NCBI GenBank assembly: GCA_964363475.1 | Contig: CAYIII010000002.1 | Location: forward strand, 6,661-70,660 | Direction: 5' to 3' | DNA length: 64,000 bases | From: an uncultured Candidatus Saccharibacteria bacterium | GTDB lineage: Bacteria; Patescibacteriota; Minisyncoccia; UBA6257; UBA11618 | Shown here: positions 30,895-57,125 of the stretch, piece after piece | Layout: the number at the start of each line of letters is the position of its first letter | How positions within the stretch are numbered: the stretch's first letter is position 1 | The notes under the pieces: generated by a model | Told to the model about the DNA's origin: nothing | The model's input: the letters and a program-made list of their open reading frames with translations, nothing else | The model's database searches: none | Program-made: the position numbers and the translations under genes

Positions 30895-32968
30895 ATAAGG
30901 GAATAATCAGTAGGCAAGAAAAAAACAATAAAAATGGCATTAACGGCACGGAATGTCTTCGTTGGTCGACGGCAAAAAGGATAATAGTTGCGAGATGAGT
31001 CCATATAAATCCTCCGGTAATTAAATAATCCTTTCTTTTAGCCATTTTGGAAAATAAACTAGGTTTTAAAATAAATAAAATAGAGCAGACAAGGAATAGG
31101 ACAAACGGAATGGAGAGCCAAAGAGTTGCCTCGCTGGCACTAAAACCCAAAAAATAAAATAATCTTTGCGTTATTAATCTTAAATAGTCCAACGGCTGTT
31201 CTAATATCCACTGGATTGACGGAAAAGCTCTTGAGTCAAAAAAAATATTAGCAAAATTCATTACTGTATCGTAGTTTTTTTCTAAAGGCACATAATTATT
31301 AGGCACATGATTGGCTTGAACAAAATTAATTGTAACCGCTGGTTCTGATATTAAAATAAATTTACCGGTTAATAACCAATTTCTAGCCAAAAATGGTATT
31401 AATGGCAATATTATTCCTGTTACAAAAATAACAAACGGGACTAAAAAATATTTTTTAAAACTAAATATGAACCATAAAAATATAACCAGCATCATCGCCG
31501 CCATATTATTTCTCATTAGAATGCTTAATCCTAAAAATATTCCGGCCGTAAAAAAGTAAATCAAAGCCCCCCACTTTTTATTTTTATTGTCGCTAATTTT
31601 TCTTTCTGCTAGAAAAAGAAACAATATCACTAATGCTATTAGCAGTGTGCCAACAGGAAACATCTGAAACGCTTGTTTAAGCGTAATTGGATTGAGGGCA
31701 ATTAATACTAAAAGGGGTAAAAATATCAAAGAATCTTTTTTTATAAATAATTTACAAATCCAAACGACTATCAATGCTGCCAAAAGAACTGAAATTAATT
31801 GGAAAAATATTATAGGGAATAATGGCTCTCCCATTAGATAATGAGCAATAACTAGGGCGTGATAATATAAAATTTGATAATAATAACCGTAACCTGTTTC
31901 TAGGGCGCTCATACTCCAATTACCTGTTAATTGAACGTGTCTTGCAAATGTCTCATAAGTTAAAGGATCATTGCCGGTAATTAAAACATTAAAATATTCC
32001 GAATTTATTTGACCAAGTAATTTTTTTATCAATAAACCGAAACTCAATAAAAAAGACATAAAAATATAAAAACGCAAAGATAAGAACCATCCCTTCCAAT
32101 TTTCTTTATAAATAAGCAGGGTTAGAATTATTAAAATAAGTAAAAATATTATAATTTTTATAAAATTATCAATAAAATTTACGACATTATCACTATATAT
32201 TTGAAAATTTGAGTATTTTTGAGGGAAAAGACGGGTATTTAAAATATCAAGTTTTAAAAATTGCGTTGTTCCCTGTCCCCTGTGATAAATTAATTCTATC
32301 GGAACTAATTTATCAGTCGCATTTAATTCAATATGCTTATTATTTTTTTGAATGCTTAATTGGTCACTTCCTTGAACATCTAAAATTTTATCTTTATTTA
32401 TATATAATTCCGCCCTATTATCGGTAGATAAATCAATTTTTAAGGCACTTAAACCTGGATTATAAATATAACCTTTCCAGACAACGCTAATAGGAATAGT
32501 ATGGCTTCTTATATTGGGGTCATTAAATTTTGTATTATTATTTAAAAACCAAAACTGAAATGGTTTTTTATGGAAAGAATATCCAATACTTTCAAAATTA
32601 ATTTCCTCATCAATTCTTGTGCCGTCTATTTTGGGATTTATGAATTCGGTGGATTTCTGCAAAACCCCGTTTTCAATTGACGGTTGATAGTAATAACCCA
32701 TTAATCCTTCCGGTAAAGAAATAATTCCGAGCAATATTTTTATTATTATAATCAGCAGTATTATATAACTTGCTGGTCGCAATATTAAAACGTGTTTTTT
32801 TTGAAAATTTTTAAACTGAGGCAAGAAAAAAATAAAAAAAGCAGCTAATAAAACTAAAAAAAACAATTCATGAAATTGGCTTAATGGAATTCCGTCAAAC
32901 CAGCCATTTCTGCCAGAGATAATAAAGAATAAAACACATAAAAGAAAAATCAGCACATTGATAGTCAA
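30821..32968 (-). CDS. Large polytopic membrane protein with PA14-like extracytoplasmic insert (GT-C superfamily, GT39/GT83-like candidate)
   Basis: 715 aa; 2 TM, then a ~180-aa soluble insert (IDGTRIDEEINFESIGYSF...VVWKGYIYNPGLSALKIDLSTDNRAELYINKDKIL, PA14-like), then more than 10 TM helices. Confidence 0.45.
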   Translation of the reverse strand: MTINVLIFLLCVLFFIISGRNGWFDGIPLSQFHELFFLVLLAAFFIFFLPQFKNFQKKHVLILRPASYIILLIIIIKILLGIISLPEGLMGYYYQPSIENGVLQKSTEFINPKIDGTRIDEEINFESIGYSFHKKPFQFWFLNNNTKFNDPNIRSHTIPISVVWKGYIYNPGLSALKIDLSTDNRAELYINKDKILDVQGSDQLSIQKNNKHIELNATDKLVPIELIYHRGQGTTQFLKLDILNTRLFPQKYSNFQIYSDNVVNFIDNFIKIIIFLLILIILTLLIYKENWKGWFLSLRFYIFMSFLLSFGLLIKKLLGQINSEYFNVLITGNDPLTYETFARHVQLTGNWSMSALETGYGYYYQILYYHALVIAHYLMGEPLFPIIFFQLISVLLAALIVVWICKLFIKKDSLIFLPLLVLIALNPITLKQAFQMFPVGTLLIALVILFLFLAERKISDNKNKKWGALIYFFTAGIFLGLSILMRNNMAAMMLVIFLWFIFSFKKYFLVPFVIFVTGIILPLIPFLARNWLLTGKFILISEPAVTINFVQANHVPNNYVPLEKNYDTVMNFANIFFDSRAFPSIQWILEQPLDYLRLITQRLFYFLGFSASEATLWLSIPFVLFLVCSILFILKPSLFSKMAKRKDYLITGGFIWTHLATIILFAVDQRRHSVPLMPFLLFFSCLLIIPLSKIFLRFLPLKFQSNYLENSHEFL

Positions 32969-33712: not shown

Positions 33713-34625
33713 TCAGATTATGACAAAAAATAATGTAATGTTAGTAACTGGTTGTGGTGGAATGTTAGGGGAAGCCGTCTATAATTTTTTTAAAGATAAG
33801 TGTAAGGTTTTTGCTACCGATATTGATATTAATGAAAAGTGGCTGTCCTATTTAGATGTTAATTCCGTGTCATCTTTAAAGAAAACCTGCGATAAAATAA
33901 AACCAAATTTTATAATTCATTTAGTCGCCTTAACTGATTTGGAATATTGTGAATCTAATCCGGAAAAGGCCTATCAAATAAATACTTGGGGTGTTTATAA
34001 TGTTGTTGCGGAAGCTCATAAGAGAAAAATTCCTCTTGTTTGCATGTCTACTGCCGGCGTTTTTGACGGATTAAAAGGAAAATATAAAGAAGACGACCTG
34101 CCCAATCCAATTAGCATTTATGGCAAATCTAAATATTTAAGTGAATTAATTGCCTGTTCTTATGAAAAAGCCATTGTTATAAGAGCCGGATGGATGATAG
34201 GCGGCGGTCCTAAGAAAGACAAAAAATTTGTCAATAAAATTATACAAAAAATAAATGCGGGGAATGAAGAAATAGCCGTGGTTAATGATAAATTTGGCAG
34301 TCCTTCTTATACATATGATTTGGTTAAAGTTATGTATTTTTTATTAAAGAATAAAAAATACGGTCTTTTTCATGGTTGTTGCGGTGGAAGTTGTAATAGA
34401 CTAGACATTGCCAATCAGATTATTTCTTTAATGGGCATGAGTGATAAGATAAAAATTAAAATTGTGGATTCCAAATATTTTAATAAAGATTATTTTGCTC
34501 CTCGACCAGTTTCAGAAAATTTGATTAACTCAAAATTAAATCTAATAGGCGTCAATCTAACCAGAGATTGGCGAGATGCTTTAAAAGATTATTTAGGTAG
34601 GTTTGATTGGTTATCACACAAATGA
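33699..34625 (+). CDS. SDR-family nucleotide-sugar reductase (RmlD/dTDP-4-dehydrorhamnose-reductase-like)
   Basis: 308 aa; VTGCGGMLG Rossmann, YGKSK (YxxxK). Confidence 0.6.
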   Translation: MDCSDQIMTKNNVMLVTGCGGMLGEAVYNFFKDKCKVFATDIDINEKWLSYLDVNSVSSLKKTCDKIKPNFIIHLVALTDLEYCESNPEKAYQINTWGVYNVVAEAHKRKIPLVCMSTAGVFDGLKGKYKEDDLPNPISIYGKSKYLSELIACSYEKAIVIRAGWMIGGGPKKDKKFVNKIIQKINAGNEEIAVVNDKFGSPSYTYDLVKVMYFLLKNKKYGLFHGCCGGSCNRLDIANQIISLMGMSDKIKIKIVDSKYFNKDYFAPRPVSENLINSKLNLIGVNLTRDWRDALKDYLGRFDWLSHK

Positions 34626-35296
34626 AAATTTGTTTGTCATTTCACACCGAACGATTGCATGATGATAAAACTTGGAGCCAAATTAAATGGCTTGTTGAAT
34701 TATTAAATAAATTTAATATCCGAGCCGTGTGGTTTTCTGTTAACCCAACCTTTTTCCTTTATAAGGAAATGGGGTTTGATGAAAAAAAATGGATTGAAAG
34801 GCTTAAGTATTTGTCTAGTCATAACCAAAAAATAGAACAACACACAACTTTTTATTTTAAAAATAAACAAGAATGTAATTTAGAACCAAATTATATCAGA
34901 AAGAGATTATTAGAAGATAAAAAATGGCTTGAAAATCATGGACATTGCATCTCTGGTTTTGTGAGCGGGACTTGGATAATTAATAATGACGTAATTAATG
35001 CTTTGAATGAATTAAATTATAAATATGATTGCACGGCTCGGATGTTTAACTTGAATTATCTTAAAAATAATCCTAATCAGATGATTATTAATAATCCTAT
35101 AAAAATTGGTAATATTTGGGAAATTCCCACAACAGCTCCCGTCAAATATATTTTTTTAAAATCTAAAGGCAATTATAAAATGGTTTATCTTCATGATTAT
35201 GATTTAAATAATTTTATAATTAGAAATTTATTAAAAGCATTCATTATATTAAACAGTAAAAAACAATTTGTAACTCCTTTGGAACTTAATATATGA
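34607..35296 (+). CDS. Hypothetical protein (possibly polysaccharide-deacetylase-like)
   Basis: 229 aa; no confident motif. Confidence 0.3.
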   Translation: MVITQMKICLSFHTERLHDDKTWSQIKWLVELLNKFNIRAVWFSVNPTFFLYKEMGFDEKKWIERLKYLSSHNQKIEQHTTFYFKNKQECNLEPNYIRKRLLEDKKWLENHGHCISGFVSGTWIINNDVINALNELNYKYDCTARMFNLNYLKNNPNQMIINNPIKIGNIWEIPTTAPVKYIFLKSKGNYKMVYLHDYDLNNFIIRNLLKAFIILNSKKQFVTPLELNI

Positions 35297-41237: not shown

Positions 41238-41771
41238 TTACAAGATATTCAATATTTTATCAACAACCTGCTCTTCAGACAAATTGCCGGTAGTTATTCT
41301 TTTTTCAGAATATTTTTTATATAGAGGTAATCTGTAATTATAAACCTTTCTCAATCCCCCTTTTTCTTTGAGGCCGATTACAGCCCCGCGAGTTTTGCCA
41401 TGCGTTGTTCTATCTTCAATAAGAGAAAATGGCGTGTCTATAAAAATAATTAACGCGTTCTTTCTTAATTCTTCCATAGCTTTTTTAGATAAAATAATAC
41501 TCCCTCCCGGGGAGATTACGGTATTTCGAGGTTTATTTTTAAGCAAATTAATCAAGTATTTTTCTTCCAGCTCTATGAATTTTTTCTCCCCGACATCTTT
41601 TATGATTTGGTCAAGATTTTTTTTGCACTTTATTTCCAGCAAATCGTCTATGTCCAGAAATATGAATTTAAGCTTGAAGGCCAGTTTTTTGCCAACCATG
41701 CTCTTTCCCGCTCCAGCCATACCTATTAGGGCGATATTTTGTTTGCTTATAGTATTTTTTTTTATTAGCAT
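41238..41771 (-). CDS. P-loop kinase of the shikimate-kinase/gluconokinase fold (start taken at the internal Met to avoid overlap)
   Basis: Walker A IALIGMAGAGKSMVGKKLA followed by FIFLDIDDLLE, as in AroK-type kinases. Confidence 0.5.
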   Translation of the reverse strand: MLIKKNTISKQNIALIGMAGAGKSMVGKKLAFKLKFIFLDIDDLLEIKCKKNLDQIIKDVGEKKFIELEEKYLINLLKNKPRNTVISPGGSIILSKKAMEELRKNALIIFIDTPFSLIEDRTTHGKTRGAVIGLKEKGGLRKVYNYRLPLYKKYSEKRITTGNLSEEQVVDKILNIL

Positions 41772-41789
41772 TGGTGTTATTAAATAATA

Positions 41790-43028
41790 ATGAATACCAG
41801 CCATTATATAGCATCCTGCAGAATTTGCCAAAACAAAACACTTGTCCCTTTTTTTGACCTTGGCCACCATCCCTTAGCTAATTCTCTTATTAAAAATTTA
41901 GATAAAAAAGAATTTTTTTTTCCTTTATGTTTATGTTGGTGCAATGCTTGTAAGGTTGTTCAATTAAATTATACAGTTGACCCTAAAATTCTTTTTTCAA
42001 ATTATTTTTGGGTTACCGGCACCTCTCAAACGGCTAAAGATTTTTCTTTTAAGTTTTATCAAAAACTAATCAAGCGTTCTGTTAATTCTTCCAAAAATTT
42101 TGTTTTAGAAATAGCGAGCAATGACGGCACTTTTTTAAGGCCTTTCATTAAAAATGGCTATAAGGTTATGGGAGTTGATCCCGCTAAAAATGTTGTGGAG
42201 ATAGCTCAAAAAAACAATATACCCACTATTTGCGGATTTTGGAATAAAAGTTTCGCAATTAAATTTAAAAAGAAATACGGACTAGCACAAATAATCTTTG
42301 CTAGAAATGTTTTGCCTCATGTTAACGATATTCATGGTTTTATAGATGGGGCGGTATATTGTTTAAGCGACGATGGAATATTGGCTATTGAGGCGCATTA
42401 TGCCGGTAATATTTTAGACGGTTTGCATTACGATTCAATTTATCATGAGCATTTATTTTACTTTACTTTAAAATCACTGGAAGGATTATTTAATAAATTT
42501 AATTTATTTATTTTTGACATTGAACCAAGTCCTATTAGTGGAGGAGCCATTATTGTTTATGCTAAAAAGAAAAAAGTAGCGGAAAATAATAATCTTAAAA
42601 AATATAGAAATTATGAATTAAAAAATAAGATTAATAGTTTTTTGAGTTGGAAAAAATTTGCTAATAACGCTTTCAGACATAAAAAAGAATTAATCAATTT
42701 AATGAAAAATATACCTAATAAAGAAAATAATCTAATTGGATGGGGAGCATCTGCCAGAAGCTCCACTCTATTGAATTTTTGTAAAATTGATTCTAAAATA
42801 ATACCTGTTATTGCCGACCAAAATTTTTTAAAGCATAAACATTTTACTGCCGGCTCCCATATTTTGATTGATTCTCCGGATTCAGTTATGAAAAGAAAGC
42901 CGAAATTTGTAATAATTTTAGCGTGGAATTTTACTAAAGAAATAATCGGCATATTAAAAAATAAATATAAATATTCCGGTAAATATATAATTCCATTGCC
43001 GAATAAACCCAAAATTCAATTAAAATAA
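41790..43028 (+). CDS. Nucleotide-sugar C-methyltransferase family protein (Zn-ribbon + class I MTase + C-methyltransferase C-terminal domain; TylCIII/EvaC-like)
   Basis: 412 aa; N-terminus CRICQNKTLVPFFDLGHHPLANS is the hallmark Zn-binding motif of the sugar 3-C-methyltransferase family; central SAM-binding domain. Confidence 0.7.
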   Translation: MNTSHYIASCRICQNKTLVPFFDLGHHPLANSLIKNLDKKEFFFPLCLCWCNACKVVQLNYTVDPKILFSNYFWVTGTSQTAKDFSFKFYQKLIKRSVNSSKNFVLEIASNDGTFLRPFIKNGYKVMGVDPAKNVVEIAQKNNIPTICGFWNKSFAIKFKKKYGLAQIIFARNVLPHVNDIHGFIDGAVYCLSDDGILAIEAHYAGNILDGLHYDSIYHEHLFYFTLKSLEGLFNKFNLFIFDIEPSPISGGAIIVYAKKKKVAENNNLKKYRNYELKNKINSFLSWKKFANNAFRHKKELINLMKNIPNKENNLIGWGASARSSTLLNFCKIDSKIIPVIADQNFLKHKHFTAGSHILIDSPDSVMKRKPKFVIILAWNFTKEIIGILKNKYKYSGKYIIPLPNKPKIQLK

Positions 43029-45538: not shown

Positions 45539-46271
45539 ATTAAAACAAGCGGTAATATTAGCCGGTGGTCTGGGAGTTCGTTTGCGTCCCCTGACAAATA
45601 ATGTTCCAAAGCCGATGGTGAAAGTGAATGAAAGGCCGTTTTTGGAACATCTTTTTGAACTGCTCAAATCAAATGGAATCAGTGAAGTAGTTTTGCTTTT
45701 GGGATATCTGCCAGAAAAATTTATAAATTATTTTGGCGATGGTTCCGGTTTCGGCTTAAAAATAAAATATTCTATTGGGGATGTTGATTGGGAAAGCGGA
45801 ACAAGAATAAAAAAAGCCAGGCATTTATTTGATGACCAATTTCTTTTAATGTATGGCGATATTTATTGGCCGCTTAATCTGAAAAGGATAATGGATTCTT
45901 ATAATAAGATGGGATTGCCGGCTATGATGACTGTTTATAATAATTACAAGAAGGATGGTGAATATAAAATAAATAATGTTGATATTAATGAAAATAGTAT
46001 CATCACTTATTATGGAAATTGTATGGATAAGATTGGGTTTAGCGGTTTAGATATAGGATTTTTTATTTTAAAAAAAGATGTTTTAAAAAGAATGCCAAAT
46101 GATAATTTTAATTTTCAGAATGGTTATTTGCCCAAATTAATTTCTAAAAGACAATTAGCCGCCTATATAACTAATGAACAGTATTGCACCATCACGAACA
46201 TAGATTTTTTTAAAAAAGCCGAGGTTTTTTTAAAGAAAATTAATAAAAAACTGCCCAAAAAGGACAGTTAA
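45525..46271 (+). CDS. Sugar-1-phosphate nucleotidyltransferase (RfbF/HddC-like)
   Basis: 248 aa; AVILAGGLGVRLRPLTNNVPKPMV. Confidence 0.8.
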   Translation: MTPIKLKQAVILAGGLGVRLRPLTNNVPKPMVKVNERPFLEHLFELLKSNGISEVVLLLGYLPEKFINYFGDGSGFGLKIKYSIGDVDWESGTRIKKARHLFDDQFLLMYGDIYWPLNLKRIMDSYNKMGLPAMMTVYNNYKKDGEYKINNVDINENSIITYYGNCMDKIGFSGLDIGFFILKKDVLKRMPNDNFNFQNGYLPKLISKRQLAAYITNEQYCTITNIDFFKKAEVFLKKINKKLPKKDS

Positions 46272-46996
46272 ACTTCTTCATGCTGATGAACAAAATTTGG
46301 CGAATAAAGCAAGGGAATAGATTCCTGCTTTTTGTCATGTCCAAGCAGGCCGGCTAATTTTGTTTCTATTGGAATTACAATAGAATCATAAACTTCTCTA
46401 TGAGTTTTCCCGTGTTTTTCGGCAAAAACTTTTCCCAAATGAAAATATCTTCCCCCTTCCTCAAAATGCGGCTTGAGGTCATCAAACCGTCTTTTATAAG
46501 TAGTAACTTGATAGTTTGAAGTACAACAATCGGCATAGAATACTATCATTGCATCAAGATCGGCATCGCCACTTAGCATCCTTTCGATGCCAATATCGCC
46601 AGTAGTGCTTGCAAGCGAAACAACGTGTTCCGGTATCCCCATTTTTAGCAATAACTCAAAACCCTCTTTATCCGTTTTCCCCCCTTCTTGCTCTTGTCGT
46701 TTAAACCAATCATGCAACAACAATGCTCGAACAACTGAATTTAGTGAAACGCCATGTCTTTTGGTATTTAAAGCCAAATTGTAACCCAATGTGGCAGAAA
46801 CAGCCATATGGGCCACAACATTAAGCCAAGATCGTTTTAAACGATAATTATCATCCCATTGCGGATGCAAAAGACCGCCAACCTCCCAAATACGCAATAT
46901 AAGATCGTCAAAACAATGATCTGGAAAATACTCCATGCATCTTGATATAACAGCGTTTATTTCACAATTTTGAGCGAAATAATCGCATGCGTTCAT
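46268..46996 (-). CDS. HD-domain phosphohydrolase-like protein (only opposite-strand gene inside the sugar-nucleotide module)
   Basis: 242 aa; H...HD...D arrangement (VAHMAV ... LLLHDWFK ... D). Locally higher GC than its neighbours. Confidence 0.5.
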   Translation of the reverse strand: MNACDYFAQNCEINAVISRCMEYFPDHCFDDLILRIWEVGGLLHPQWDDNYRLKRSWLNVVAHMAVSATLGYNLALNTKRHGVSLNSVVRALLLHDWFKRQEQEGGKTDKEGFELLLKMGIPEHVVSLASTTGDIGIERMLSGDADLDAMIVFYADCCTSNYQVTTYKRRFDDLKPHFEEGGRYFHLGKVFAEKHGKTHREVYDSIVIPIETKLAGLLGHDKKQESIPLLYSPNFVHQHEEV

Positions 46997-47065: not shown

Positions 47066-47941
47066 ATGAGAATTTTTGTTACAGGCGGTACTGGTTTTAT
47101 TGGTAGCCATGTAATTGATTTATTGAAAAAGGAAAAGCAGGAACTATTGTTATTGTCTAGAAAAAATAATAAAAGACCCTTTATTAAAGGCAATCTCAAT
47201 TCTATTCAAAAATGGAAAGATAAGTTGATTGAGTTTAGACCTGAAGCGACTATACATTTAGCTTGGGAAAATACTCCTCATGGTAGCGCTTCCAAACATA
47301 GCTCTTTGGACAGCGCTGGTAACTTAACTTATGGACTTAATTTAATTAAAGCCCTTACTGAAACTGGTTGTAAAAAAATTTTAGCAACAGGAAGCTGTTG
47401 GGAATATGGCAGGTCTTTTGGAAAATTAGAAGAAATCAGTTCGGTAGATTATTCTAATTCCTTTGTTATTGCCAAAAATTGCTTACATTTTTTGGGTAGA
47501 AAGATAGCTGAAGAAAATAATATGCAGTTTATTTGGACAAGACTTTTTTTTGTTTATGGTCCGGGACAAAGACGTCAATCTATAATTCCTTATCTTTTTG
47601 ATTGTTATAATAGAAATTTAAAGCCGGATATTAAAAATCCATTTAATAAAAATGACTTTGTTTATGTAGAAGATGTAGTAGAGGCAATCTGGGAAATATT
47701 AAGAAATAATAATTCAAGCTCCATTTATAACATTGGCACAGGACATTCGGTGTCAATTGAAAAAATTGCCAATATTATCTATGGTACTAGCAAGAAAGAA
47801 TTATTAAATAAAGGTTCCCAAAATAAACCTACTTGTGATTTTTATGCAAACATTGCCAAAATTAAAAAAGATATCGGATGGTACCCCAAAATTAGCATTG
47901 AAGCAGGAATTAAAGAGCTCAAAGAAATTAACGGTATCTGA
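47066..47941 (+). CDS. SDR-family NAD(P)-dependent nucleotide-sugar reductase/epimerase
   Basis: Start taken at MRIFVTGGTGFIGSHV. The longer ORF beginning at 46970 overlaps the HD gene on the opposite strand. Confidence 0.65.
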   Translation: MRIFVTGGTGFIGSHVIDLLKKEKQELLLLSRKNNKRPFIKGNLNSIQKWKDKLIEFRPEATIHLAWENTPHGSASKHSSLDSAGNLTYGLNLIKALTETGCKKILATGSCWEYGRSFGKLEEISSVDYSNSFVIAKNCLHFLGRKIAEENNMQFIWTRLFFVYGPGQRRQSIIPYLFDCYNRNLKPDIKNPFNKNDFVYVEDVVEAIWEILRNNNSSSIYNIGTGHSVSIEKIANIIYGTSKKELLNKGSQNKPTCDFYANIAKIKKDIGWYPKISIEAGIKELKEINGI

Positions 47942-49631
47942 ATATATAATTTCTCTTATAGAAAAAACGAGTGTTGATTTAGTGCCTGTTATTACTGGTG
48001 GGGCTATTATGAAATTAGTAGATGATATTGGGCGGAATTCTAAATTAAAATATTTATGTCCAAATCATGAACAAGCTTTGGCTATGATTGTTGATGCTTA
48101 CGCTAGGATTAAAGGATTTGGAGTGGGATTGGTGACTAGCGGACCCGGTGGCACTAATTTAATAACCGGCATTTGCTGTTCTTATTATGATTCTATTCCT
48201 TGTCTTTTTATTTCAGGACAAGTAGGCATGTTTCATATGAAAGGCAAACGAGTTATCCGCCAACGCGGCTTTCAAGAAACTGATATTATAAGCGTTGTTA
48301 AATCAATTACTAAACACGCCGTCTTATTAGATAATCCGGAAAAGACACGCTATGAGTTTGAAAAAGCTGTTTACATGGCTAAATCAGGAAGACCTGGGCC
48401 AGTTTTAATTGACCTTCCCTACAACATTCAACGGGCACTTATTGACCCTGATAAACTTATCGGCTTTATTCCAGAAAAGTGGTTCGACCACGCTCACCAC
48501 AAGAAGAAAAATGATTCCGAAAAGCAATTAGAAAAAGCAAGTAGGGTAATTATAAAAGAATTAAAAAATGCTAAAAAACCCCTTATTTTAGTTGGTGGTG
48601 GCGTTCGTTTGGCAAATCAAGTAGAAACTATTAATAAGGTAGTTAGCTATCTTCAAATCCCAGTTGTTACCACTTGGGGAGCTTTGGATAATTTTGACTG
48701 GAATCATAAATTATATGGAGGTAATATCGGCAGATTAGGGAATCCGTCGGCTTTAAAAATGATTGATGAATGCGATTTACTGTTGGCTTTAGGCACAAGA
48801 TTTACCACTAAAGCTATTATTAATGAAAAAGAATTTTCTAAACAAGCAAAAATTATTTCCGTTGATGTAGATAATGGAGAGCTAAACGAAGGATTGATTT
48901 CTCCCCAAATTAAAATTCAGGCAGAATTACAAGATTTTTTGCCTAACTTTCTAAATTTAGTAAAAAAACAAAAAATTACTTTAAATATTAATGAATGGAG
49001 AAAAAGGGTTAATGAGTTAAAGATTAATTTTTTTCATATTAAATCACCGTCCGCTGATGATAAGAATTATGTTAATCCGTATTATTTTATGGAAATTTTA
49101 TCAGAATTATTACAGCATGATGATATAATTGTCGCCGATTGCGGCACAAATCTTACTTGGGCGGTTCAAGGATATAAACCTAAAAAGGGGCAAAGATTTA
49201 TATCTGCTTGGGGTAATTCGCCAATGGGTTATGCTTTGCCCGCGGCTATTGGCGCTTATTATGCGAATAAAAATGTTAATGTTGTTGTCACTACGGGAGA
49301 CGGCGGTTTTCAAATGAATATTCAGGAATTACAAACAATAGCCGTTAATAAAATACCGGTTAAGGTTTTTATACTTAATAATCAGTGTTACGCGAATATT
49401 AAATTTCCTGCTCGAGAACAATTTAATGGAAGGACTTTTGCCACCGAATCAAGTAACGGATATGAAGCGCCCGATTTTGTTAAAATTGCCACAGCTTATG
49501 GTTTAAAATCTTTAAGAATAAAATTTAATAAAAACTTAAAAGAGAAAATAAAAAGTATATTATCAAAAAAAGAACCGATAATTATTGATGTTATGTGCGA
49601 TCCAGAACTTTATGTTTTTGATAATGTATGA
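47844..49631 (+). CDS. Thiamine-diphosphate-dependent enzyme of the acetolactate-synthase large-subunit family (YerE-like candidate)
   Basis: About 595 aa; three-domain ALS-like layout; ThDP motif TTGDGGFQMNIQELQ...VFILNNQCY (GDG...NN). Start is uncertain (GTG at 47835 or ATG at 47844), with about 100 nt overlap with the preceding gene. Confidence 0.75.
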   Translation: MQTLPKLKKISDGTPKLALKQELKSSKKLTVSEYIISLIEKTSVDLVPVITGGAIMKLVDDIGRNSKLKYLCPNHEQALAMIVDAYARIKGFGVGLVTSGPGGTNLITGICCSYYDSIPCLFISGQVGMFHMKGKRVIRQRGFQETDIISVVKSITKHAVLLDNPEKTRYEFEKAVYMAKSGRPGPVLIDLPYNIQRALIDPDKLIGFIPEKWFDHAHHKKKNDSEKQLEKASRVIIKELKNAKKPLILVGGGVRLANQVETINKVVSYLQIPVVTTWGALDNFDWNHKLYGGNIGRLGNPSALKMIDECDLLLALGTRFTTKAIINEKEFSKQAKIISVDVDNGELNEGLISPQIKIQAELQDFLPNFLNLVKKQKITLNINEWRKRVNELKINFFHIKSPSADDKNYVNPYYFMEILSELLQHDDIIVADCGTNLTWAVQGYKPKKGQRFISAWGNSPMGYALPAAIGAYYANKNVNVVVTTGDGGFQMNIQELQTIAVNKIPVKVFILNNQCYANIKFPAREQFNGRTFATESSNGYEAPDFVKIATAYGLKSLRIKFNKNLKEKIKSILSKKEPIIIDVMCDPELYVFDNV

Positions 49632-50479
49632 AAGTCATTATTACCGGTTCAGAAGGTTTTATTGGTAAGGAGCTTTCAAAACAATGCCGTAAACTCGGTC
49701 ATAAAGTTGTTGGTATAGATTTAATAAATGGTTTAGATATAAGATCTGCTGATATAGCAGACCACTTGCCTATTAACTCGGACGTACTAATTCATCTCGC
49801 CGCTCTTGCTCAACCCAAACAGTGTTTGAATAATGCGAAAAGTTGTTTTGATAATAACATTTTAGGAACAGTTAATATTTTTGAGGCCGCTATGATAAAA
49901 AAAGTAAAACATTTTATTTTTGCTTCCAGTGAATGGATTTATGGAGATTTTAATTCTAATAAGGAACTTTTAGAAGATTCTTTTATTGATTTAAAATCTA
50001 TTAATAGCGAATACGCCCTATCTAAACTTGTCTCCGAATGTTATCTAAAACAGTATTATCTTAAATATTTAATACCGACTACTATTTTACGCTTTAGTAT
50101 AGTTTATGGACCAGACAATAAACACCAAACCGCAGTTGAATCTTTATTTAATTCTATTAAAATAGGTAATAAAGTTAGCGTTGGTTCTCTAAAAACAGCT
50201 AGAAGATTTATCCACGTGGAAGATGTTGCTTCGGGGATTATTACCAGTTTTTCAAAAAAAAGGTTGGGATTTGAAATTTATAATTTATCATATAATAAAT
50301 TAATTGCTTTAAAAGAAATTATAGAAACTAGCGCCAAGCTTTTAAGAGTTAAACCTACGATAATAGAATTAGACCCAAACAACTTTATTATTAGAAATCC
50401 ATCTAATAATAAATTTAAGAAAATATTTAAATGGAAACCAAAAATTGATTTAAAAACAGGATTAAAAACTTTAAATTAA
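49628..50479 (+). CDS. SDR-family NAD-dependent epimerase/reductase
   Basis: 283 aa; ITGSEGFIGKEL, YALSK (YxxxK). Confidence 0.7.
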   Translation: MKVIITGSEGFIGKELSKQCRKLGHKVVGIDLINGLDIRSADIADHLPINSDVLIHLAALAQPKQCLNNAKSCFDNNILGTVNIFEAAMIKKVKHFIFASSEWIYGDFNSNKELLEDSFIDLKSINSEYALSKLVSECYLKQYYLKYLIPTTILRFSIVYGPDNKHQTAVESLFNSIKIGNKVSVGSLKTARRFIHVEDVASGIITSFSKKRLGFEIYNLSYNKLIALKEIIETSAKLLRVKPTIIELDPNNFIIRNPSNNKFKKIFKWKPKIDLKTGLKTLN

Positions 50480-50487
50480 CATTTAAA

Positions 50488-51636
50488 ATGAAATATAAAT
50501 TTAGTAAAAGATTGTGTGCTTTATGCGGATCCAATAGAAAATTTAAAAATCTATTTACGCAAAGATCCGAACGCCTAAAAGTTAATTATGTTGTTTCGGA
50601 ATGTTTATCTTGCGGATTTATTCATCAAAATCCCGCATGGGAACAGAAATTTTATAATGATCTTTATGCGGATCTTATTTATGACCCTACCAATCATAAA
50701 TTTTATCCGGCTCAAGTTAAAAGATATAAGGGGGTGGCAGATATTATTGCCACGCTTTTCCCTTCTAATAAGATAGAAAGATTGTTAGATTTTGGTTGTT
50801 ATGACGGTTCTTTTATTGAGTGGCTAAAAAAATTTACCAATTGGGGAAAGCGTATTCAATTAGTCGGTTATGACATTCACTTAAAAAATATAGCGAATAA
50901 AAGTGGTTTTTATAATTCTTTAGATTTTTTAACAAAAAAAGAGGGTGGGTTTGATGTTGTGGTTTTAAATCATGTTTTAGAGCATATATATAATCCATTA
51001 GAAACTTTAAAGTTTATTAAAAATAATTTATTGAGAAACAATGGATTTATAATTATAGAGGTTCCCGATGTTTCTTTTTTAAGGGAAGATGATGTTGTCC
51101 CTGCTTATATCCAGCATATTAATTATTTTACTCCGCATACCATAACTAGATTGAGCAACAAGGCCAATTTATCAACGCAATATTTAAAAACTTTTAAAAA
51201 CTTTGATGTAAATCGAGAACCCTACTCCCCCACTTTGTTAGTTGTTTTTCAAAATGATTTAAATTATTTAGCCGATGGACAATCGCTTAAATCAGCTTTT
51301 AAATTAAATGAAAGCAAATTAAAAGGAAAACTCTCTAAAATTAAAAAAAATACCTCTTTGGGCGTAATTGGCTGTGGAGATGCATTGTTTACTGTTTTTA
51401 ATTTTATAAAAAAAGAATTTAAAAATATAACTGTAAATTCTTTATTTGATAATAATAAAAATATTTGGAATCAAAAAATGTTCGGAATGCTCGTTCAGCC
51501 GGTAGAAAAAATAAAGGAAGGAAAATGCGATTTATTTCTAATATGCACCCTAAACAAACACAATGCTGAGCAAATTTTGTCTCAAATATCCGAATATACT
51601 TCTCCCAATAAAATTATTACGGTCTTAAATATTTGA
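50488..51636 (+). CDS. Zn-ribbon-containing SAM-dependent methyltransferase with extra C-terminal Rossmann-like domain
   Basis: 382 aa; CALCGS...CLSCGF (2x CxxC); LLDFGCYDGSF motif I; VVVLNHVLEHI. Confidence 0.55.
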   Translation: MKYKFSKRLCALCGSNRKFKNLFTQRSERLKVNYVVSECLSCGFIHQNPAWEQKFYNDLYADLIYDPTNHKFYPAQVKRYKGVADIIATLFPSNKIERLLDFGCYDGSFIEWLKKFTNWGKRIQLVGYDIHLKNIANKSGFYNSLDFLTKKEGGFDVVVLNHVLEHIYNPLETLKFIKNNLLRNNGFIIIEVPDVSFLREDDVVPAYIQHINYFTPHTITRLSNKANLSTQYLKTFKNFDVNREPYSPTLLVVFQNDLNYLADGQSLKSAFKLNESKLKGKLSKIKKNTSLGVIGCGDALFTVFNFIKKEFKNITVNSLFDNNKNIWNQKMFGMLVQPVEKIKEGKCDLFLICTLNKHNAEQILSQISEYTSPNKIITVLNI

Positions 51637-52379
51637 TTATAAATATGGACCCAATTAAAGCGTTTCAATTAGAAAGAGAAGGTAACATAAAAAAATTAGG
51701 AAAAAATAAGGAGCTTAAAAAAATAGCCGAAAATTTTATTATAAAATCCAGCAAGATTAAATATGTTTATAATTTCAATTGGCTAGGCAGGCCGATTATC
51801 CAGTTTCCACAGGAGATAGTCGCTATACAAGAAATTATTTGGTCCGTAAAGCCAGATTTAATTATTGAAACAGGTATTGCGCATGGCGGGTCAATTATTC
51901 TATCAGCATCCATATTAGAATTAATTGGCAAAAACGGACTTGTGGTAGGAATTGACATTGATATTAGAAAACATAATAAGAAACTAATTAAAGCGCACTT
52001 TTTGTTTAAAAGGATTCGGATGTTAGAGGGCTCATCTATTGATATGGACATATATAATCAAGCAAAAAAAATTACTCAAGACAAAAAGAAGGTTATGGTT
52101 TTTTTAGATTCCAATCATACTTATAATCATGTTTGGCAAGAATTGTGTTTATATTCTAAATTAGTAAGTAAAAATAGTTATATTGTAGTTTTTGATACTG
52201 TTACCGAAATAATACCAAAAGAAATTTCTAAAAATAGACCTTGGGGGAAAGGTAATAATCCAAAAACAGCTGTTGATAGGTTTTTAAGAGAGAATAAAAA
52301 TTTTGTAGTAGACAAAAATATTAATAATAAATTATTGATTACTACCAATCCCGGCGGATATTTAAAAAAAATAAGCTAA
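51633..52379 (+). CDS. CmcI/'cephalosporin hydroxylase'-family SAM methyltransferase (sugar O-methyltransferase type)
   Basis: 248 aa; PDLIIETGIAHGGSIILSA...VVGIDIDIRKHN. Confidence 0.65.
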   Translation: MIINMDPIKAFQLEREGNIKKLGKNKELKKIAENFIIKSSKIKYVYNFNWLGRPIIQFPQEIVAIQEIIWSVKPDLIIETGIAHGGSIILSASILELIGKNGLVVGIDIDIRKHNKKLIKAHFLFKRIRMLEGSSIDMDIYNQAKKITQDKKKVMVFLDSNHTYNHVWQELCLYSKLVSKNSYIVVFDTVTEIIPKEISKNRPWGKGNNPKTAVDRFLRENKNFVVDKNINNKLLITTNPGGYLKKIS

Positions 52380-52380
52380 A

Positions 52381-53238
52381 ATGAACCGACCATTAGTTAG
52401 TATAGGAATGGCAATATATAACGAAGAAAGATTTCTTTCTCAAACTCTGGACTCATTATTAGCTCAAGATTATTCTAATCTGGAAGTTATTATCTGTGAT
52501 AATGTTTCTACTGATAAAACTGGAGGAATAGCTCAAGAATACTCTAAAAAAGATAATCGTATTAAATATTATCTTAACGAAAGCAATGTCGGCGGAACAA
52601 GAAACTATAACAAAGTATTTTTTCTATCTTCCGGAGAATATTTTATGTGGGTTGGCGGACATGATTTGTATGATAAAAGTTTTATTTCCTCTTGCGTAGA
52701 AATTTTAGAAAAAGATAAAAATGTGGTTCTGGTGTATTCTTTAACAAATATTATTGATGATTTAAATAATAAAACTGGGTCACTGTCTCATCATATAGAT
52801 ACTCGTTCTCTAAATCCTTTATTGAGATTTCATTTATTTTTTTATTATTTAACGAAGGTTCACCCCACCCATGGCCTAATAAGATACGATTCAATAAAAA
52901 GAACCGGTCTCTATAAAAAAGTATTAAATCCAGACAATATGCTTTTTAGTCAATTAGCCTTAATGGGAGAATTTGCTCATATACCCAAATTTTTATTTTA
53001 TTTTCGTACAATTAGGCCCAAAGAAACCGGTTGGGAAACTACCCTGAGACACATAAAAGACATATATAGTCCAAGGCATCAAAATTATCCTTATATTTTT
53101 TATACATTACATCAGTTTTATTATCATGTTCTCTCTATTTATGAAGCTCCTGTAAGTTGGTACTATAAGCCAATTCTTGTTTTTATACTTATTTTCGAAG
53201 GTCTTCTATTACGCATAAGAATAGCTATGAAAATTTAA
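52381..53238 (+). CDS. GT2 glycosyltransferase, tandem paralog 1 of 4
   Basis: 285 aa; SIGMAIYNEERFLSQTLDSLLAQDYSNLEVIICDNVSTDKTG. Confidence 0.75.
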   Translation: MNRPLVSIGMAIYNEERFLSQTLDSLLAQDYSNLEVIICDNVSTDKTGGIAQEYSKKDNRIKYYLNESNVGGTRNYNKVFFLSSGEYFMWVGGHDLYDKSFISSCVEILEKDKNVVLVYSLTNIIDDLNNKTGSLSHHIDTRSLNPLLRFHLFFYYLTKVHPTHGLIRYDSIKRTGLYKKVLNPDNMLFSQLALMGEFAHIPKFLFYFRTIRPKETGWETTLRHIKDIYSPRHQNYPYIFYTLHQFYYHVLSIYEAPVSWYYKPILVFILIFEGLLLRIRIAMKI

Positions 53239-53241
53239 AAG

Positions 53242-54129
53242 ATGAATAATAAACCATTGGTTAGCATAGGAATGCCTGTTTTCAACGAAGAAAGATTTCT
53301 TTCTCAAACATTAGATTCATTATTGGCTCAAGATTATTCTAATCTGGAAATTATTATTTGTGATAATATTTCTACTGATAAAACTGGGGAAATAGTTCAG
53401 GAATATGAAAAAAAAGATAACCGTATTAAATATTATCTTAATAAGAATAACATTGGCTTATTAAGAAATTCTAATAAAGTATTCACTTTGTCTTCCGGAA
53501 AGTATTTTATGTTAGTTGGTGGACACGATTTGTATGATAAAAGCTTTATTTCCTCTTGCGTAGAAATTTTAGAAAAAGATAGAAATGTAGTTTTGGTGTA
53601 TGCATTAACATATTTCATTGATGATTTAAATAATAAGATTGGGGCTTGGTCTAATCGCCTAGATACCCGTTCTTTAAATCCTTTATTAAGATATCATTTA
53701 TTCTTTTATTATTTATTGAGGATTCATTATATTCATGGATTGATGAGACGCGATTTAATAAAAAAGACTGATTTTTTCAAAAATACGGTAAATGCTGATT
53801 GTATGCTCATAAGCCGCTTGTCTTTAATAGGCGAATTTACTTATATACCAAAATTTTTATTTTATTATCGCATGGTTAGACCAAAAGAAACTGGTTCGGA
53901 AAATATTCAGAAACAAATAAGAGATATATATAGTAAAAAACACCAAAATCACTTCTACATCTTTTATCTTCTGCACCAATTTTATTATCATATTCTTCTT
54001 ATTTATAAAGCTCCTGTAGCTTGGTATTATAAGCCAATTATTATTTTTATACTTATTTTTGCGTTTTTTTCATTACGTATAAGGTTGATTATCAAAAATT
54101 TAAAACATGAACAATCGCTCATTGGTTAG
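53242..54129 (+). CDS. GT2 glycosyltransferase, tandem paralog 2 of 4
   Basis: 295 aa; SIGMPVFNEERFLSQTLDSLLAQDYSNLEIIICDNISTDKTG. Confidence 0.75.
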   Translation: MNNKPLVSIGMPVFNEERFLSQTLDSLLAQDYSNLEIIICDNISTDKTGEIVQEYEKKDNRIKYYLNKNNIGLLRNSNKVFTLSSGKYFMLVGGHDLYDKSFISSCVEILEKDRNVVLVYALTYFIDDLNNKIGAWSNRLDTRSLNPLLRYHLFFYYLLRIHYIHGLMRRDLIKKTDFFKNTVNADCMLISRLSLIGEFTYIPKFLFYYRMVRPKETGSENIQKQIRDIYSKKHQNHFYIFYLLHQFYYHILLIYKAPVAWYYKPIIIFILIFAFFSLRIRLIIKNLKHEQSLIG

Positions 54130-54991
54130 TATAGGACTTCCCGTTTTCAACGAAGAAAGATTTCTTTCTCAGACACTGGACTCATTATTGGCTCAAGATT
54201 ATTCTAATCTGGAAATTATTATTTGTGATAACGCTTCTACTGATAAGACCGGGGAAATAGCCCAAGAATATGCTAGAAAAGATAGCCGTATTAAATATCA
54301 TCTTAATGAAAGTAATATTGGCGGAACAAGAAATTTTAATAAAGTATTTCTCTTGTCTTCCGGAGAATATTTTATGTGGGCAGGCGGACATGATTTGTAT
54401 GATAAAAGTTTTGTTTGTAAGTGTTTAAATATGTTTAAGGTAGAAAATAAAGTGGTATTAGTATATCCGATAACATCGTCAATAGATTGCGAAAATAATA
54501 ATTTAGGAACAATGCCAGGAAGATTGGATACGAGGGATTTGGGCATATCTCGTAAATTACACTGTATCCTTTGGGGAATACCCAACGGCAACCCCGTGTA
54601 TGGATTAATTAAAAGAAGCGCTATGGAGAAAACATTGTTATTCCAAAATATTTTAGGAATGGACTTAGTGTTTCTTTTCGAACTGTCTTTAGTTGGTGAT
54701 TTTGCTCATATTTCGGAAAAACTTTTTTACAGAAGAGAGGTTCATCCTGAAGAAAAAAACGGGGGCGCTAAACAGAGGCGCTTAAATGATACATATTTAA
54801 AAAAAATAAACGGCGCTAGTTTATTGCCTTATTGGTACTTAGTTTATAAAAAGTTAATAGTAATCAAAAAAGTTAATTTAAATAAATTAAAAAAAATAGG
54901 TCTTTTTGTATCCATTCTATTTAATTTAATTATTATATATGGATTAGCAATGTTGAGGGACTTAAAAAGAATATGGAAAAAAATAATCTAA
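54107..54991 (+). CDS. GT2 glycosyltransferase, tandem paralog 3 of 4
   Basis: 294 aa; SIGLPVFNEERFLSQTLDSLLAQDYSNLEIIICDNASTDKTG; overlaps paralog 2 by 23 nt. Confidence 0.75.
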   Translation: MNNRSLVSIGLPVFNEERFLSQTLDSLLAQDYSNLEIIICDNASTDKTGEIAQEYARKDSRIKYHLNESNIGGTRNFNKVFLLSSGEYFMWAGGHDLYDKSFVCKCLNMFKVENKVVLVYPITSSIDCENNNLGTMPGRLDTRDLGISRKLHCILWGIPNGNPVYGLIKRSAMEKTLLFQNILGMDLVFLFELSLVGDFAHISEKLFYRREVHPEEKNGGAKQRRLNDTYLKKINGASLLPYWYLVYKKLIVIKKVNLNKLKKIGLFVSILFNLIIIYGLAMLRDLKRIWKKII

Positions 54992-56268
54992 CCAAAAGTA
55001 ACATAGAATCAATTAATAGTTTAGGGCAATTTTATCATGGTCACTGGGATTTTAATGGGGGCTCTATTAACCACGAAGAAGGTATGAGGGGCAGGGCTGA
55101 TTTTCTTTTAAGAAAAGTACAAGAAATAATAAAAAATAATTTCAGTAATAATGAGATTAAAAAAGCGTCTATTATTGACATTGGATGTTATGACGGCTGG
55201 ATTACTCATCAATTAAGTCACTTACCCTTTAAGGAAATAATTGGTATTGAGCCAAGAATAAATAATATTACAAAGGGTAAAATGATAAGAAAAATTTTAA
55301 ACATTAAGACACGCGTAAAATTTAAACAAGATTCTTTAGAATCATTAGCAAAACATAAAAAACAATTTGATATAGTTCTTTGTCTTGGGGTACTACATCA
55401 TTGTGAGTCCATTTTTTTAGCGTTGAAACAATTAGATAAAATATCAAAAAAAATACTTGTAATTAGCACGATTTGTTTGCCGTCAAAATTCATTACAGAA
55501 AATATTAAAAATTATATTGAATTAAAGGATGTCGTTTATTTTAATCAAAAAAAAATATATGGTTTAACAGGGCAAAAATATGAGTCCGCATATTCTGATG
55601 GGTCAACATTTAATAATACAGTAGTTAGCATCCCCTCTCTTGAATCCTTAATTATGTACCTTAATGTTCTTGATTATGATTATAAAATCATTGCAAATCA
55701 CGATGACTTTAGTAAGTCCATTCCTAAGGACCCCAGAATCTCTCAAGAAATATTAATTTGTGCTGTAAAAAGAGAAGAAAATAAAAAATTAAATTATATG
55801 AATAACCCCATAAAAGATTATGAACAGGGCTTAATAGAGACCAATATTCAGTCCAATTATATATTACCAATATTTGATTATATTTGTTTAAAAAAAAGAG
55901 ATGTCAAAATGAATTTGATGGTAAAAAAAATAATTGCGTATATTGATTTTCCGGATGATAAAAAATTAAAAAATATATTTAATTTCTTTAAAAATATTTA
56001 TCAACAAGAAATTATTAAGAATTTGAAGTATAATCCTGCTGATAAAATTGGTCTTGAATGGGGAAAAATACTATACTCGCAAAAAAAATATAACGAGGCC
56101 ATTCAAGTTTTACAAAGCATAACTCAAAGATTAAATACTGATTGGCGATGTGTTTACCGTTCTTTTTATTTACTAAAAATAATATATGAGAAAATCGGAG
56201 ATAATAAAAAGGCAGAATATTATCACAGATTATGTAAAAATTGTAATCCCAATTTCCCTCTTTTATGA
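54973..56268 (+). CDS. Class I SAM-dependent methyltransferase with helical C-terminal extension
   Basis: 431 aa; IIDIGCYDGWITHQL motif I. Confidence 0.6.
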   Translation: MEKNNLTKSNIESINSLGQFYHGHWDFNGGSINHEEGMRGRADFLLRKVQEIIKNNFSNNEIKKASIIDIGCYDGWITHQLSHLPFKEIIGIEPRINNITKGKMIRKILNIKTRVKFKQDSLESLAKHKKQFDIVLCLGVLHHCESIFLALKQLDKISKKILVISTICLPSKFITENIKNYIELKDVVYFNQKKIYGLTGQKYESAYSDGSTFNNTVVSIPSLESLIMYLNVLDYDYKIIANHDDFSKSIPKDPRISQEILICAVKREENKKLNYMNNPIKDYEQGLIETNIQSNYILPIFDYICLKKRDVKMNLMVKKIIAYIDFPDDKKLKNIFNFFKNIYQQEIIKNLKYNPADKIGLEWGKILYSQKKYNEAIQVLQSITQRLNTDWRCVYRSFYLLKIIYEKIGDNKKAEYYHRLCKNCNPNFPLL

Positions 56269-57125
56269 AATTAGTTAATATAGGGGTTCCCGCTTTGAAT
56301 GAAGAAAGATTTCTTTCTCAGACACTGGACTCATTATTGGCTCAAGATTATTCCAATCTGGAAATTATTATTTGTGATAACGCTTCTACTGATAAGACCG
56401 AAGAAATATCTTGTAAATATGCGGGAAAAGATAGTCGCATTAAATATTTTAAAAATAAAGAACGATTATCTGGGCCAGAAAATTGGAATAGAGCCTTTCA
56501 ATTATCATCAAGTAAATATTTCATGTGGGCTAGTGGGCATGATTTATATGATAAAAGTTTTGTTTCTTCTTGTATGGAAATTTTAGAGAAGGAAGAAAAT
56601 GTGACTCTGGCTTATTCTTTAACTTATTCAATAGATGAATATAACAATAAATTACAAATTATACCGCAATACCTTGACACTAGAACATTAAATTTAATAT
56701 CAAGATTTAATAAGTTTATATTGGCTTCCAATAATTCTAGTTGTATACTTACTGGTTTAATAAGGTCAGAATCAATTAGAAAAACTCATTTAATGCAAAA
56801 TACATTGGCGGCAGACACGCTTTTTTTAAGTGAATTATCTTTATTGAGCTATTTTGCTCAAACACAAAAACCATTATATTATCGTCGAGAAATAAGACCA
56901 CATGAAACTCCCATTATGACTTCAAAAAGAAGAATTAAGGATATTTTTAGAAATAAAAAAAAATATCCAGCAATATTTTATTTATTTCATTTAATATATA
57001 AATATCTTATAACGATATGGCGATCTTCAATAAATTTCGGCTATAAAATAATTCTTTCTTTTTTTATTTTTTTTGATTTAGGAATTTTATATTTTAAAAC
57101 AATACTAAAATATGTGAAAAAATGA
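56265..57125 (+). CDS. GT2 glycosyltransferase, tandem paralog 4 of 4
   Basis: 286 aa; NIGVPALNEERFLSQTLDSLLAQDYSNLEIIICDNASTDKTE. Confidence 0.75.
   Translation: MKLVNIGVPALNEERFLSQTLDSLLAQDYSNLEIIICDNASTDKTEEISCKYAGKDSRIKYFKNKERLSGPENWNRAFQLSSSKYFMWASGHDLYDKSFVSSCMEILEKEENVTLAYSLTYSIDEYNNKLQIIPQYLDTRTLNLISRFNKFILASNNSSCILTGLIRSESIRKTHLMQNTLAADTLFLSELSLLSYFAQTQKPLYYRREIRPHETPIMTSKRRIKDIFRNKKKYPAIFYLFHLIYKYLITIWRSSINFGYKIILSFFIFFDLGILYFKTILKYVKK

Follow-up and report, generated by a model that had tools for sequence, protein, structure and literature searches.

Two glycosyltransferase systems, the fut genes of Helicobacter pylori and the lgt genes of Neisseria gonorrhoeae, contain repeat tracts that confer phase variation (poly-G in lgt), and structural variants of them are found among strains. 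In H. pylori, the alpha-1,3-fucosyltransferase paralogs futA and futB exchange short segments, chimeras co-exist in one stomach, and diversity between the paralogs of a single isolate does not exceed that between strains (PMC2583950). For lgtABCDE of N. gonorrhoeae, open reading frames (ORFs) 1-2 are reported to be homologous to ORFs 4-5 with an unrelated gene between them (PMC2191774), and poly-G tracts in lgt genes and a rearranged locus in at least strain 15253 are also reported (PMC2191774; PMC2192810). In concerted evolution of prokaryotic genes, gene conversion keeps the paralogs of one species more similar to each other than orthologs of different species are (Wang & Chen 2018, PMC6053082; rRNA operons, PMC6002687). 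Here we describe a tandem array of four genes of glycosyltransferase family 2 (GT2-family), named GT1 to GT4 by position, in a 64,000-nt stretch of metagenomic DNA (contig CAYIII010000002.1 of assembly GCA_964363475.1, positions 6,661 to 70,660, forward strand; hereafter the window). Our analysis strongly favors the interpretation that segmental gene conversion, a form of concerted evolution, homogenises a core of ~120 nt among these four old paralogs.

Like futA and futB, the window genes are paralogous glycosyltransferases of one surface-glycan pathway that appear to exchange short segments by homologous recombination. The fut genes, however, lie at separate loci, belong to a different glycosyltransferase family, and have poly-C tracts, heptad repeats, and chimeras segregating in one population, whereas the window genes are tandem GT2-family genes, their exchange is limited to the ~120-nt donor-side core, and no simple sequence repeats or segregating chimeras were seen in the array. 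The placement of homologous glycosyltransferase genes around an unrelated gene recalls lgtABCDE, with GT1-3 on one side of a methyltransferase gene and GT4 on the other, but the poly-G tracts and the rearrangement of lgt were not found in the window array. The defining pattern of prokaryotic concerted evolution (PMC6053082) is present in the window core. Compared with the general case, it is segmental, involves four copies at once, and leaves a remainder of each gene that escaped conversion.

All four genes are on the forward strand: GT1 (52381..53238, 285 amino acids), GT2 (53242..54129, 295 amino acids), GT3 (54107..54991, 294 amino acids), and GT4 (56265..57125, 286 amino acids). Each matches PF00535 (Glycos_transf_2) with E 3e-25 to 9e-30 and 89.5-104.2 bits against a cutoff of 23.3 (E 1.7e-29 for GT1). 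The ORFs and these matches confirm the original prediction, made from the letters alone, that tandem GT2-family paralogs start at 52381, 53242, 54107, and 56265; the GT3 start 23 nt inside GT2 and the methyltransferase gene between GT3 and GT4 are likewise where that prediction had put them.

The same prediction described nearly identical 5′ ends with divergent downstream parts, and a pairwise comparison of the genes agrees with it. A repeat search of the window found a direct-repeat family of four 300-nt copies at 52389, 53253, 54118, and 56267, beginning 8-12 nt into each gene, with copies 2-4 showing 83%, 85%, and 72% identity to the first. The four genes share 72-86% nucleotide identity pairwise over the first ~300 nt and are diverged downstream. 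In a codon alignment, identity among the window paralogs is 0.78-0.89 in codons 1-60, roughly 0.8-0.9 over codons 1-120, and drops to 0.36-0.6 in the 3′ half for every pair but GT1-GT2, which is the closest pair (78% nucleotide and 72% amino acid identity across the whole gene). The predicted motif GAAGAAAGATTTCTTTCTCARAC has exactly four occurrences in the window, one in each gene, with 0 expected by chance, and the stretch reported as specific to GT1 and GT2 corresponds to an exact run of 37 nt. GT3 and GT4 share exact runs of 53 and 46 nt, the former being the longest between any copies. This 5′ similarity exceeds what protein constraint gives; the original prediction had named the contrary result as a refutation. 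At positions with identical amino acids in codons 1-120, the same codon is used in 63-79% of cases, compared with 51-53% expected from the codon usage of the surrounding cluster (binomial p 5e-7 to 0.04). The same-codon fraction of the 3′ halves is at the chance level (0.43-0.57), with the exception of GT1-GT2 (0.70).

For comparison with a related genome, the homologs P0002, P0003, P0005, and P0008 led to two loci, L004 (NCBI GCA_964488085.1) and L005 (ENA ERZ27284378), which are 99.9% identical and both represent a second genome, B. Genome B has ~86% nucleotide identity to the window over the cluster and was treated as a second species, about 14% diverged. The gene order is the same in both: a CmcI-like methyltransferase, three glycosyltransferases, a methyltransferase, a glycosyltransferase, and then a GT4-family gene. 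The orthologs of GT1, GT2, and GT4 in B are located at L005 1494-2384, 2374-3261, and 5397-6254, respectively. A 284-residue third glycosyltransferase in L004 was considered as a variant and rejected, as it merely reflects a different start call in loci that are 99.9% identical. A third genome, C, is represented by one 1.8-kb contig carrying GT4 (L129, found via P0007; C4 at 590-1447); its identity is higher to B (91.7%) than to the window (85%). The eight glycosyltransferase genes of the window (W1-W4) and genome B (B1-B4) were codon-aligned over 903 columns. Quartet site patterns were called concerted when the states were genome-specific and orthologous when they were position-specific. Scans of genome contigs and metagenome contigs for further orthologous arrays gave just genome B, a contig from another assembly of the window genome (L049), and distant homologs with <=45% identity. 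Four loci of other taxa with two copies of this GT2-family subfamily (L028, L032, L052, and L064) show no nucleotide similarity between their copies, and the homogenisation is therefore lineage-specific.

The core occupies alignment columns 61-180, which is ~120 nt, codons ~17-56, and about 14% of the gene. On the forward strand it spans 52426..52545 in GT1, where it encodes NEERFLSQTLDSLLAQDYSNLE.IICDN.STDKTGEI, 53290..53409 in GT2, 54155..54274 in GT3, and 56304..56423 in GT4. In columns 61-120, paralog identity is 0.92-0.98 in the window and 0.88-0.95 in B, above the 0.83-0.90 of the four ortholog pairs. From column 331 onward, orthologs are 0.70-0.92 identical and paralogs 0.33-0.65, pair 1/2 excepted. 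The ratio of concerted to orthologous sites in columns 61-180 is 9:1 for pair 3/4, 5:0 for 1/3, 5:1 for 1/4, 5:3 for 2/4, 6:7 for 2/3, and 3:4 for 1/2, and outside these columns it is 4-9 : 161-225. The difference between the core and the rest is significant in 5/6 pairs (Fisher p 1e-6 to 2.5e-11), and is strongest for pair 3/4 (9:1 in the core and 7:214 elsewhere, p 2.5e-11). The contrast holds for synonymous changes: when only codons whose amino acid is shared by the four sequences of a quartet are counted, concerted and orthologous sites stand at 16:5 in codons 21-60 and at 6:92 downstream.

The tree topology shifts along the genes, synonymous sites included, as expected for mosaics. Neighbor-joining of columns 61-180 groups W3 with W4 (96% bootstrap) and B1 with B3 (86%), and trees of columns 331-540 and 541-903 group W3 with B3 and W4 with B4 (100%) and recover a GT1/GT2 clade (98-100%). 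Paralogs are thus closer than orthologs in columns 61-180 and, for B1/B2, in columns 331-540, and nowhere else in the genes. The proportion of differing synonymous sites (pS) in codons 21-60 is 0.17-0.41 between paralogs and 0.24-0.55 between orthologs; in the 3′ parts, it is 0.55-0.83 between paralogs, which is saturated, and 0.27-0.45 between orthologs. Because the 3′ halves group by position with 98-100% bootstrap and the paralog pS is saturated, the duplications are old rather than recent. Together with the same four-gene order in B, this places the array before the split of the two species about 14% diverged. The original prediction had offered "recent duplication or ongoing gene conversion"; gene conversion is supported, with core paralogs closer than orthologs, and recent duplication is not. 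The ratio of non-synonymous to synonymous differences (pN/pS) between orthologs is about 0.1-0.4 in all four genes, all of which are under purifying selection.

A single codon illustrates the process. Columns 115 and 117 split the genomes: the codon is CTG (Leu, in DYSNLE) in W1-W4 and TTT (Phe, in DYSNFE) in B1-B4. C4 has Leu (CTA) at this codon. Since C, which is closer to B, keeps Leu, the Phe codon is a change of the B lineage that came after its separation from C and then spread to all four copies. The fourth gene of B is a mosaic in the same sense. Its core is 0.88-0.90 identical to B1-B3 and 0.84 to the nearest ortholog, C4, whereas downstream of the core it is 0.89-0.92 identical to C4 and 0.5-0.7 to its paralogs. 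The majority of B4-derived core states are states present in B1-B3.

A second tract involves only GT1 and GT2. In columns 331-540 (52696..52902 in GT1 and its partner 53560..53766 in GT2, both on the forward strand), pair 1/2 has 7 concerted and 2 orthologous sites. B1 and B2 are 100% identical in columns 421-480 and group together with 86% bootstrap in columns 331-540. These three observations indicate that GT1 and GT2 of genome B underwent a conversion of their own.

Several points weigh against the conversion interpretation. The sample consists of two genomes and a one-gene fragment of a third, and the columns with a concerted pattern in the core number just about 15. The six gene pairs are not independent, and therefore the p-values are approximate. 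The core signal is mixed in pairs 1/2 (3:4) and 2/3 (6:7), so homogenisation would be incomplete and episodic rather than continuous. The data give neither the direction nor the timing of single conversion events, and strictly intragenomic conversion would look the same as recombination of a non-allelic copy with DNA imported from a related strain. Finally, the shared donor and the selection boundary in the mechanism proposed below are our inference.

Structure prediction supports placing the shared 5′ part in the N-terminal half of a GT-A fold, the half that binds the nucleotide donor, in line with the donor-binding domain named in the original prediction. The AlphaFold model of GT3 (57 homologs) is confident, with a predicted local distance difference test score (pLDDT) of 92.8 and a predicted template-modeling score (pTM) of 0.90. 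Its elements follow the GT-A order (beta1 7-13, alpha1 20-28, beta2 35-41, alpha2 48-58, beta3 62-66, alpha3 73-83, and beta4 88-91), with a Rossmann-like nucleotide-binding half followed by an acceptor half, and the model ends in a long C-terminal helix (residues 260-293). The core tract of GT3 corresponds to residues about 17-56, that is, alpha1, beta2, the CDNxSTD loop, and alpha2, which is the nucleotide-binding part in GT-A enzymes. The top matches of the model in the PDB are all GT2-family GT-A enzymes (Foldseek probability 1.00, E 1e-15 to 1e-11, TM about 0.6). The same fold is found in heparosan synthase 2 of P. multocida (8viw), E. coli K4 chondroitin polymerase (2z86), GalT1/CgT (5hea), SpsA (1qg8), TarS/TarP, and RmlT. 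Sequence identity to these solved enzymes is 14-25%; the similarity is limited to the N-terminal ~100 nucleotide-binding residues, and the sequence matches mostly cover residues 1-102 only. The window enzymes differ from them in a GGHD...LYD motif and in the long C-terminal helix.

CDNxSTD (D40/D45) and D95/D98 are invariant in 8/8 copies, and D41, D46, and D96 (GT3 numbering) are invariant in the 57 homologs. The position aligned to DSDD of 5hea reads GGHD, a non-canonical variant of the DXD motif. At this canonical DXD position (52654-52674 in GT1 and its equivalents in GT2-GT4), GGHD or SGHD followed by LYD is present in 8/8 copies, and the His-containing variant is kept in distant homologs too, with the pattern [GS]GHDLYDK. 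In an NCBIfam search of the four enzymes, no equivalog reached its cutoff (best scores 57-71 bits against cutoffs of 400-450, N-terminal matches only), and a functional assignment from these matches was rejected.

We propose the following mechanism. As the comparisons show, the four genes are old tandem paralogs of one GT2-family (GT-A fold) subfamily, whose 3′ two-thirds, covering the acceptor side and the C-terminal helix, have evolved independently since before the split of at least two species. The core is very probably overwritten again and again from copy to copy through gene conversion, a non-reciprocal form of homologous recombination that in some pairs extends, more weakly, to about 300 nt, so that the paralogs evolve in concert there. 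The conversion could be of the RecA type, seeded by long exact runs of up to 53 nt that are themselves maintained by conversion. Tracts entering the acceptor-side half may be purged by selection, since they would destroy linkage specificity. The four enzymes may draw on one nucleotide-sugar donor or on similar ones and build different linkages of a single glycan in succession; because the converted N-terminal segment appears interchangeable, a shared type of donor sugar is probable. The original prediction had conversion generating acceptor-specificity variants. We see the opposite, as the donor side is homogenised and the acceptor halves are independent and under purifying selection.

Beyond being a by-product of conversion, the core might serve as maintained homology arms for the swap, loss, or import of acceptor-specific 3′ modules, within the genome or from related cells, to which we assign a small chance. 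If true, it would give these reduced-genome, probably host-attached bacteria of the candidate phyla radiation (CPR) a modular way to re-tailor their surface glycan, and the aquifer population would then harbor rare hybrids or copy-number variants that consensus assemblies do not show.

Slightly less probable still is an active diversity-generating array, in which frequent unequal recombination deletes, duplicates, or fuses glycosyltransferase genes to produce phase or antigenic variation of the glycan. RecA-dependent recombination would have adequate substrates in the direct repeats, whose exact runs reach 53 nt, and the exchange between H. pylori futA and futB is comparable (PMC2583950). The assemblies at hand argue against it. 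The window genome was recovered in four other assemblies from well H51 of the Hainich aquifer (0.1 and 0.2 um fractions, replicates R1-R3), and the exact GT3 protein is encoded on contigs from them. The window is matched collinearly through every repeat junction by the contigs L001 (36.9 kb), L002 (19 kb), L003 (1.3 kb), and L049 (1.8 kb), which differ from it at 1, 6, 2, and 0 positions, respectively (99.85-100% identity). L049 had been listed as a possible structural variant, its match being longer than one gene, and was ruled out as 100% identical and collinear. All compared sequences are metagenome consensus sequences, in which minority variants cannot show. At this level, gene number and order vary neither among the five window-genome assemblies nor between them and the second species, ORFs are intact, and no hybrid ORFs were found; the array is structurally stable. 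Only two single-nucleotide polymorphisms (SNPs) lie within the glycosyltransferase region, at 54065 and 54093, both in the 3′ end of GT2, and no population SNP was found among the replicate assemblies in the homogenised segments, where we looked for a trace of ongoing conversion. The genes contain no G/C runs of 6 or longer. Runs of A/T reach only 8-9, are unconserved between orthologs, and are unremarkable at 28% GC. A repeat search found no short tandem repeats in these genes, and purifying selection acts on all four. The original suggestion of recombination-driven gain, loss, or shuffling, and of phase or antigenic variation, is therefore not supported at the level of consensus assemblies, below which rare variants may exist.

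Three further explanations are each very unlikely. In the first, recent tandem duplication, the copies are young and their 3′ halves diverged faster by relaxed or positive selection, with no conversion. The high 5′ identity with a gradient toward the 3′ end would fit, and the alike GT1/GT2 and GT2/GT3 junctions are consistent with a tandem-duplication origin. However, genome B, about 14% diverged, has a one-to-one ortholog of each of the four copies in unchanged order, and the 3′ halves group with these orthologs. Protein selection does not drive synonymous sites to the saturation seen between 3′ parts of paralogs, and duplication before the split cannot, without conversion, yield core paralogs closer than orthologs.

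The second holds that a nucleotide-level element, such as an mRNA structure, an internal regulatory site, or a recombinase target, is kept by selection in each 5′ part; we regard it as just as improbable. A small palindrome, AGAAAG-ATTT-CTTTCT, does lie in the motif of all four window copies, but it is broken in B2. As RNA, the four segments fold no more stably than shuffled sequences do (z = 0.10, -0.27, 0.71, and 0.94), and no recombinase gene was found among the scanned cluster ORFs of at least 150 amino acids, which are part of the window ORFs. In addition, orthologs diverge normally at core synonymous sites (pS 0.24-0.55), so the likeness is limited to paralogs within a genome. The third, with equally little in its favor, is co-adaptation at the protein level, where a common partner or donor would select the same amino acid changes in parallel in each genome. 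The Leu/Phe difference common to the four copies, a non-synonymous change within the nucleotide-binding half, would fit, but it consists of the identical two nucleotide changes in all four copies, and the genome-specific sites are mostly synonymous (16:5 for synonymous sites only).

Least probable of all, and close to negligible, is a collapsed or chimeric repeat in a metagenome assembly of modest coverage (about 5-7x in the contig names), because separate samples or replicates yielded four further assemblies that are collinear and near-identical over all repeat junctions, the layout recurs in a related species assembled in an independent study, and assemblers can easily separate copies that are just 72-86% alike and share no exact run longer than 53 nt. 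The array is real, and it is not the collapsed single gene that the original prediction had named as a possible artefact.

The gene boundaries within the array are partly conserved. The 23-nt overlap of GT2 and GT3 (54107-54129) is kept in genome B (L005 3239-3261), while GT1 and GT2 are separated by a 3-nt gap in the window (53238-53242) versus an 11-nt overlap in B (L005 2374-2384). Immediately before their starts, GT2 and GT3 have similar sequences, which is consistent with growth of the array by tandem duplication of a GT1/GT2-like unit. Public gene calls place the starts of GT1 and GT2 9-10 codons later (276 and 285 amino acids; L001 8302 and 9166). These late starts drop the beta1 strand LVSIG, which is conserved in all eight copies and in distant homologs, and for this reason the longer GT1 and GT2 ORFs are likely the true genes.

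The methyltransferase gene between GT3 and GT4 (54973..56268, forward strand) overlaps both and is not repeated. It encodes a predicted 431-residue class I S-adenosylmethionine-dependent methyltransferase (PF13847, PF13489, and PF08003), and its position is kept in genome B (L005 4105-5400). Directly upstream of GT1 is a gene for a CmcI/rhamnosyl O-methyltransferase-like protein (51633..52379, forward strand; PF04989, E 2e-82), whose match to the NCBIfam RhmsylMtase family is below its cutoff. Farther upstream, genome B has an insertion of ~300 bp with an 86-residue ORF containing a GIY-YIG nuclease domain (L004 5804-6112). It lies between the epimerase and methyltransferase genes, where the window has a 10-nt spacer (50479-50487).

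The array lies in a surface-glycan cluster of at least 38 kb. Window positions 1-24 kb have about 40% GC (0.36-0.43) and housekeeping genes, including those for a penicillin-binding protein, MraW, a sigma-70 factor, DnaE, an aminoacyl-tRNA synthetase, and GatB. From ~25 kb to the end of the window, the GC content is 27-33%, and nearly all genes encode glycosyltransferases (GT2-family and GT4-family), methyltransferases, and nucleoside diphosphate (NDP)-sugar dehydratases, epimerases, and reductases, along with RmlC, RmlD, an aminotransferase, a thiamine pyrophosphate (TPP) enzyme, and a glycerophosphotransferase. This low-GC cluster resembles a compositional island and was possibly acquired horizontally or is under other mutational or selective pressure. 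Because it contains the CmcI/rhamnosyl O-methyltransferase-like gene together with RmlC and RmlD, its product could plausibly be a methylated 6-deoxyhexose glycan, and on similar grounds dTDP-rhamnose is a candidate donor for the four enzymes.

The TPP-dependent enzyme, found among the NDP-sugar dehydratases and epimerases, is acetolactate-synthase-like (399 bits against TIGR00118, cutoff 538). A sugar C-methyltransferase (PF08421/PF08484) is encoded a few kb upstream of it (positions 47835-49631 and 41790-43028 for the two genes), and the pair suggests synthesis of a branched-chain or C-methylated sugar. A shikimate kinase gene (41238-41870, reverse strand) in the middle of the cluster, on the opposite strand, is an odd neighbor for sugar-pathway genes. 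At E <= 1e-5, Pfam gives no match for four sizeable ORFs that lie within the cluster or next to it: 30821-32968 (reverse), 34607-35296 (forward), 46268-46996 (reverse), and 24798-26198 (reverse). They include a 715-residue ORF on the opposite strand.

The named relatives closest to the window's GatB (16889-18316), at 60-64% identity, are all Patescibacteria/CPR bacteria of the Parcubacteria group. The record of genome B is labelled "uncultured Candidatus Saccharibacteria bacterium", which disagrees with these relatives. The assignment to the CPR is firm, and one of the two class-level labels is probably wrong.

Gene conversion between paralogs is a textbook process, and the array is a new example in an under-studied lineage that opens no new question. 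For annotation and binning, these results mean that such repeats are resolvable and the array is real, and that the public starts of two genes are probably too late. The array would be a natural case of segmental concerted evolution, in which a nucleotide-binding core is kept uniform over four enzymes while the specificity-determining remainder diverges. It would also mean that homologous recombination between paralogs operates in a small-genome bacterium of the candidate phyla radiation, and the probable common donor sugar would narrow the biochemical tests needed for the glycan.

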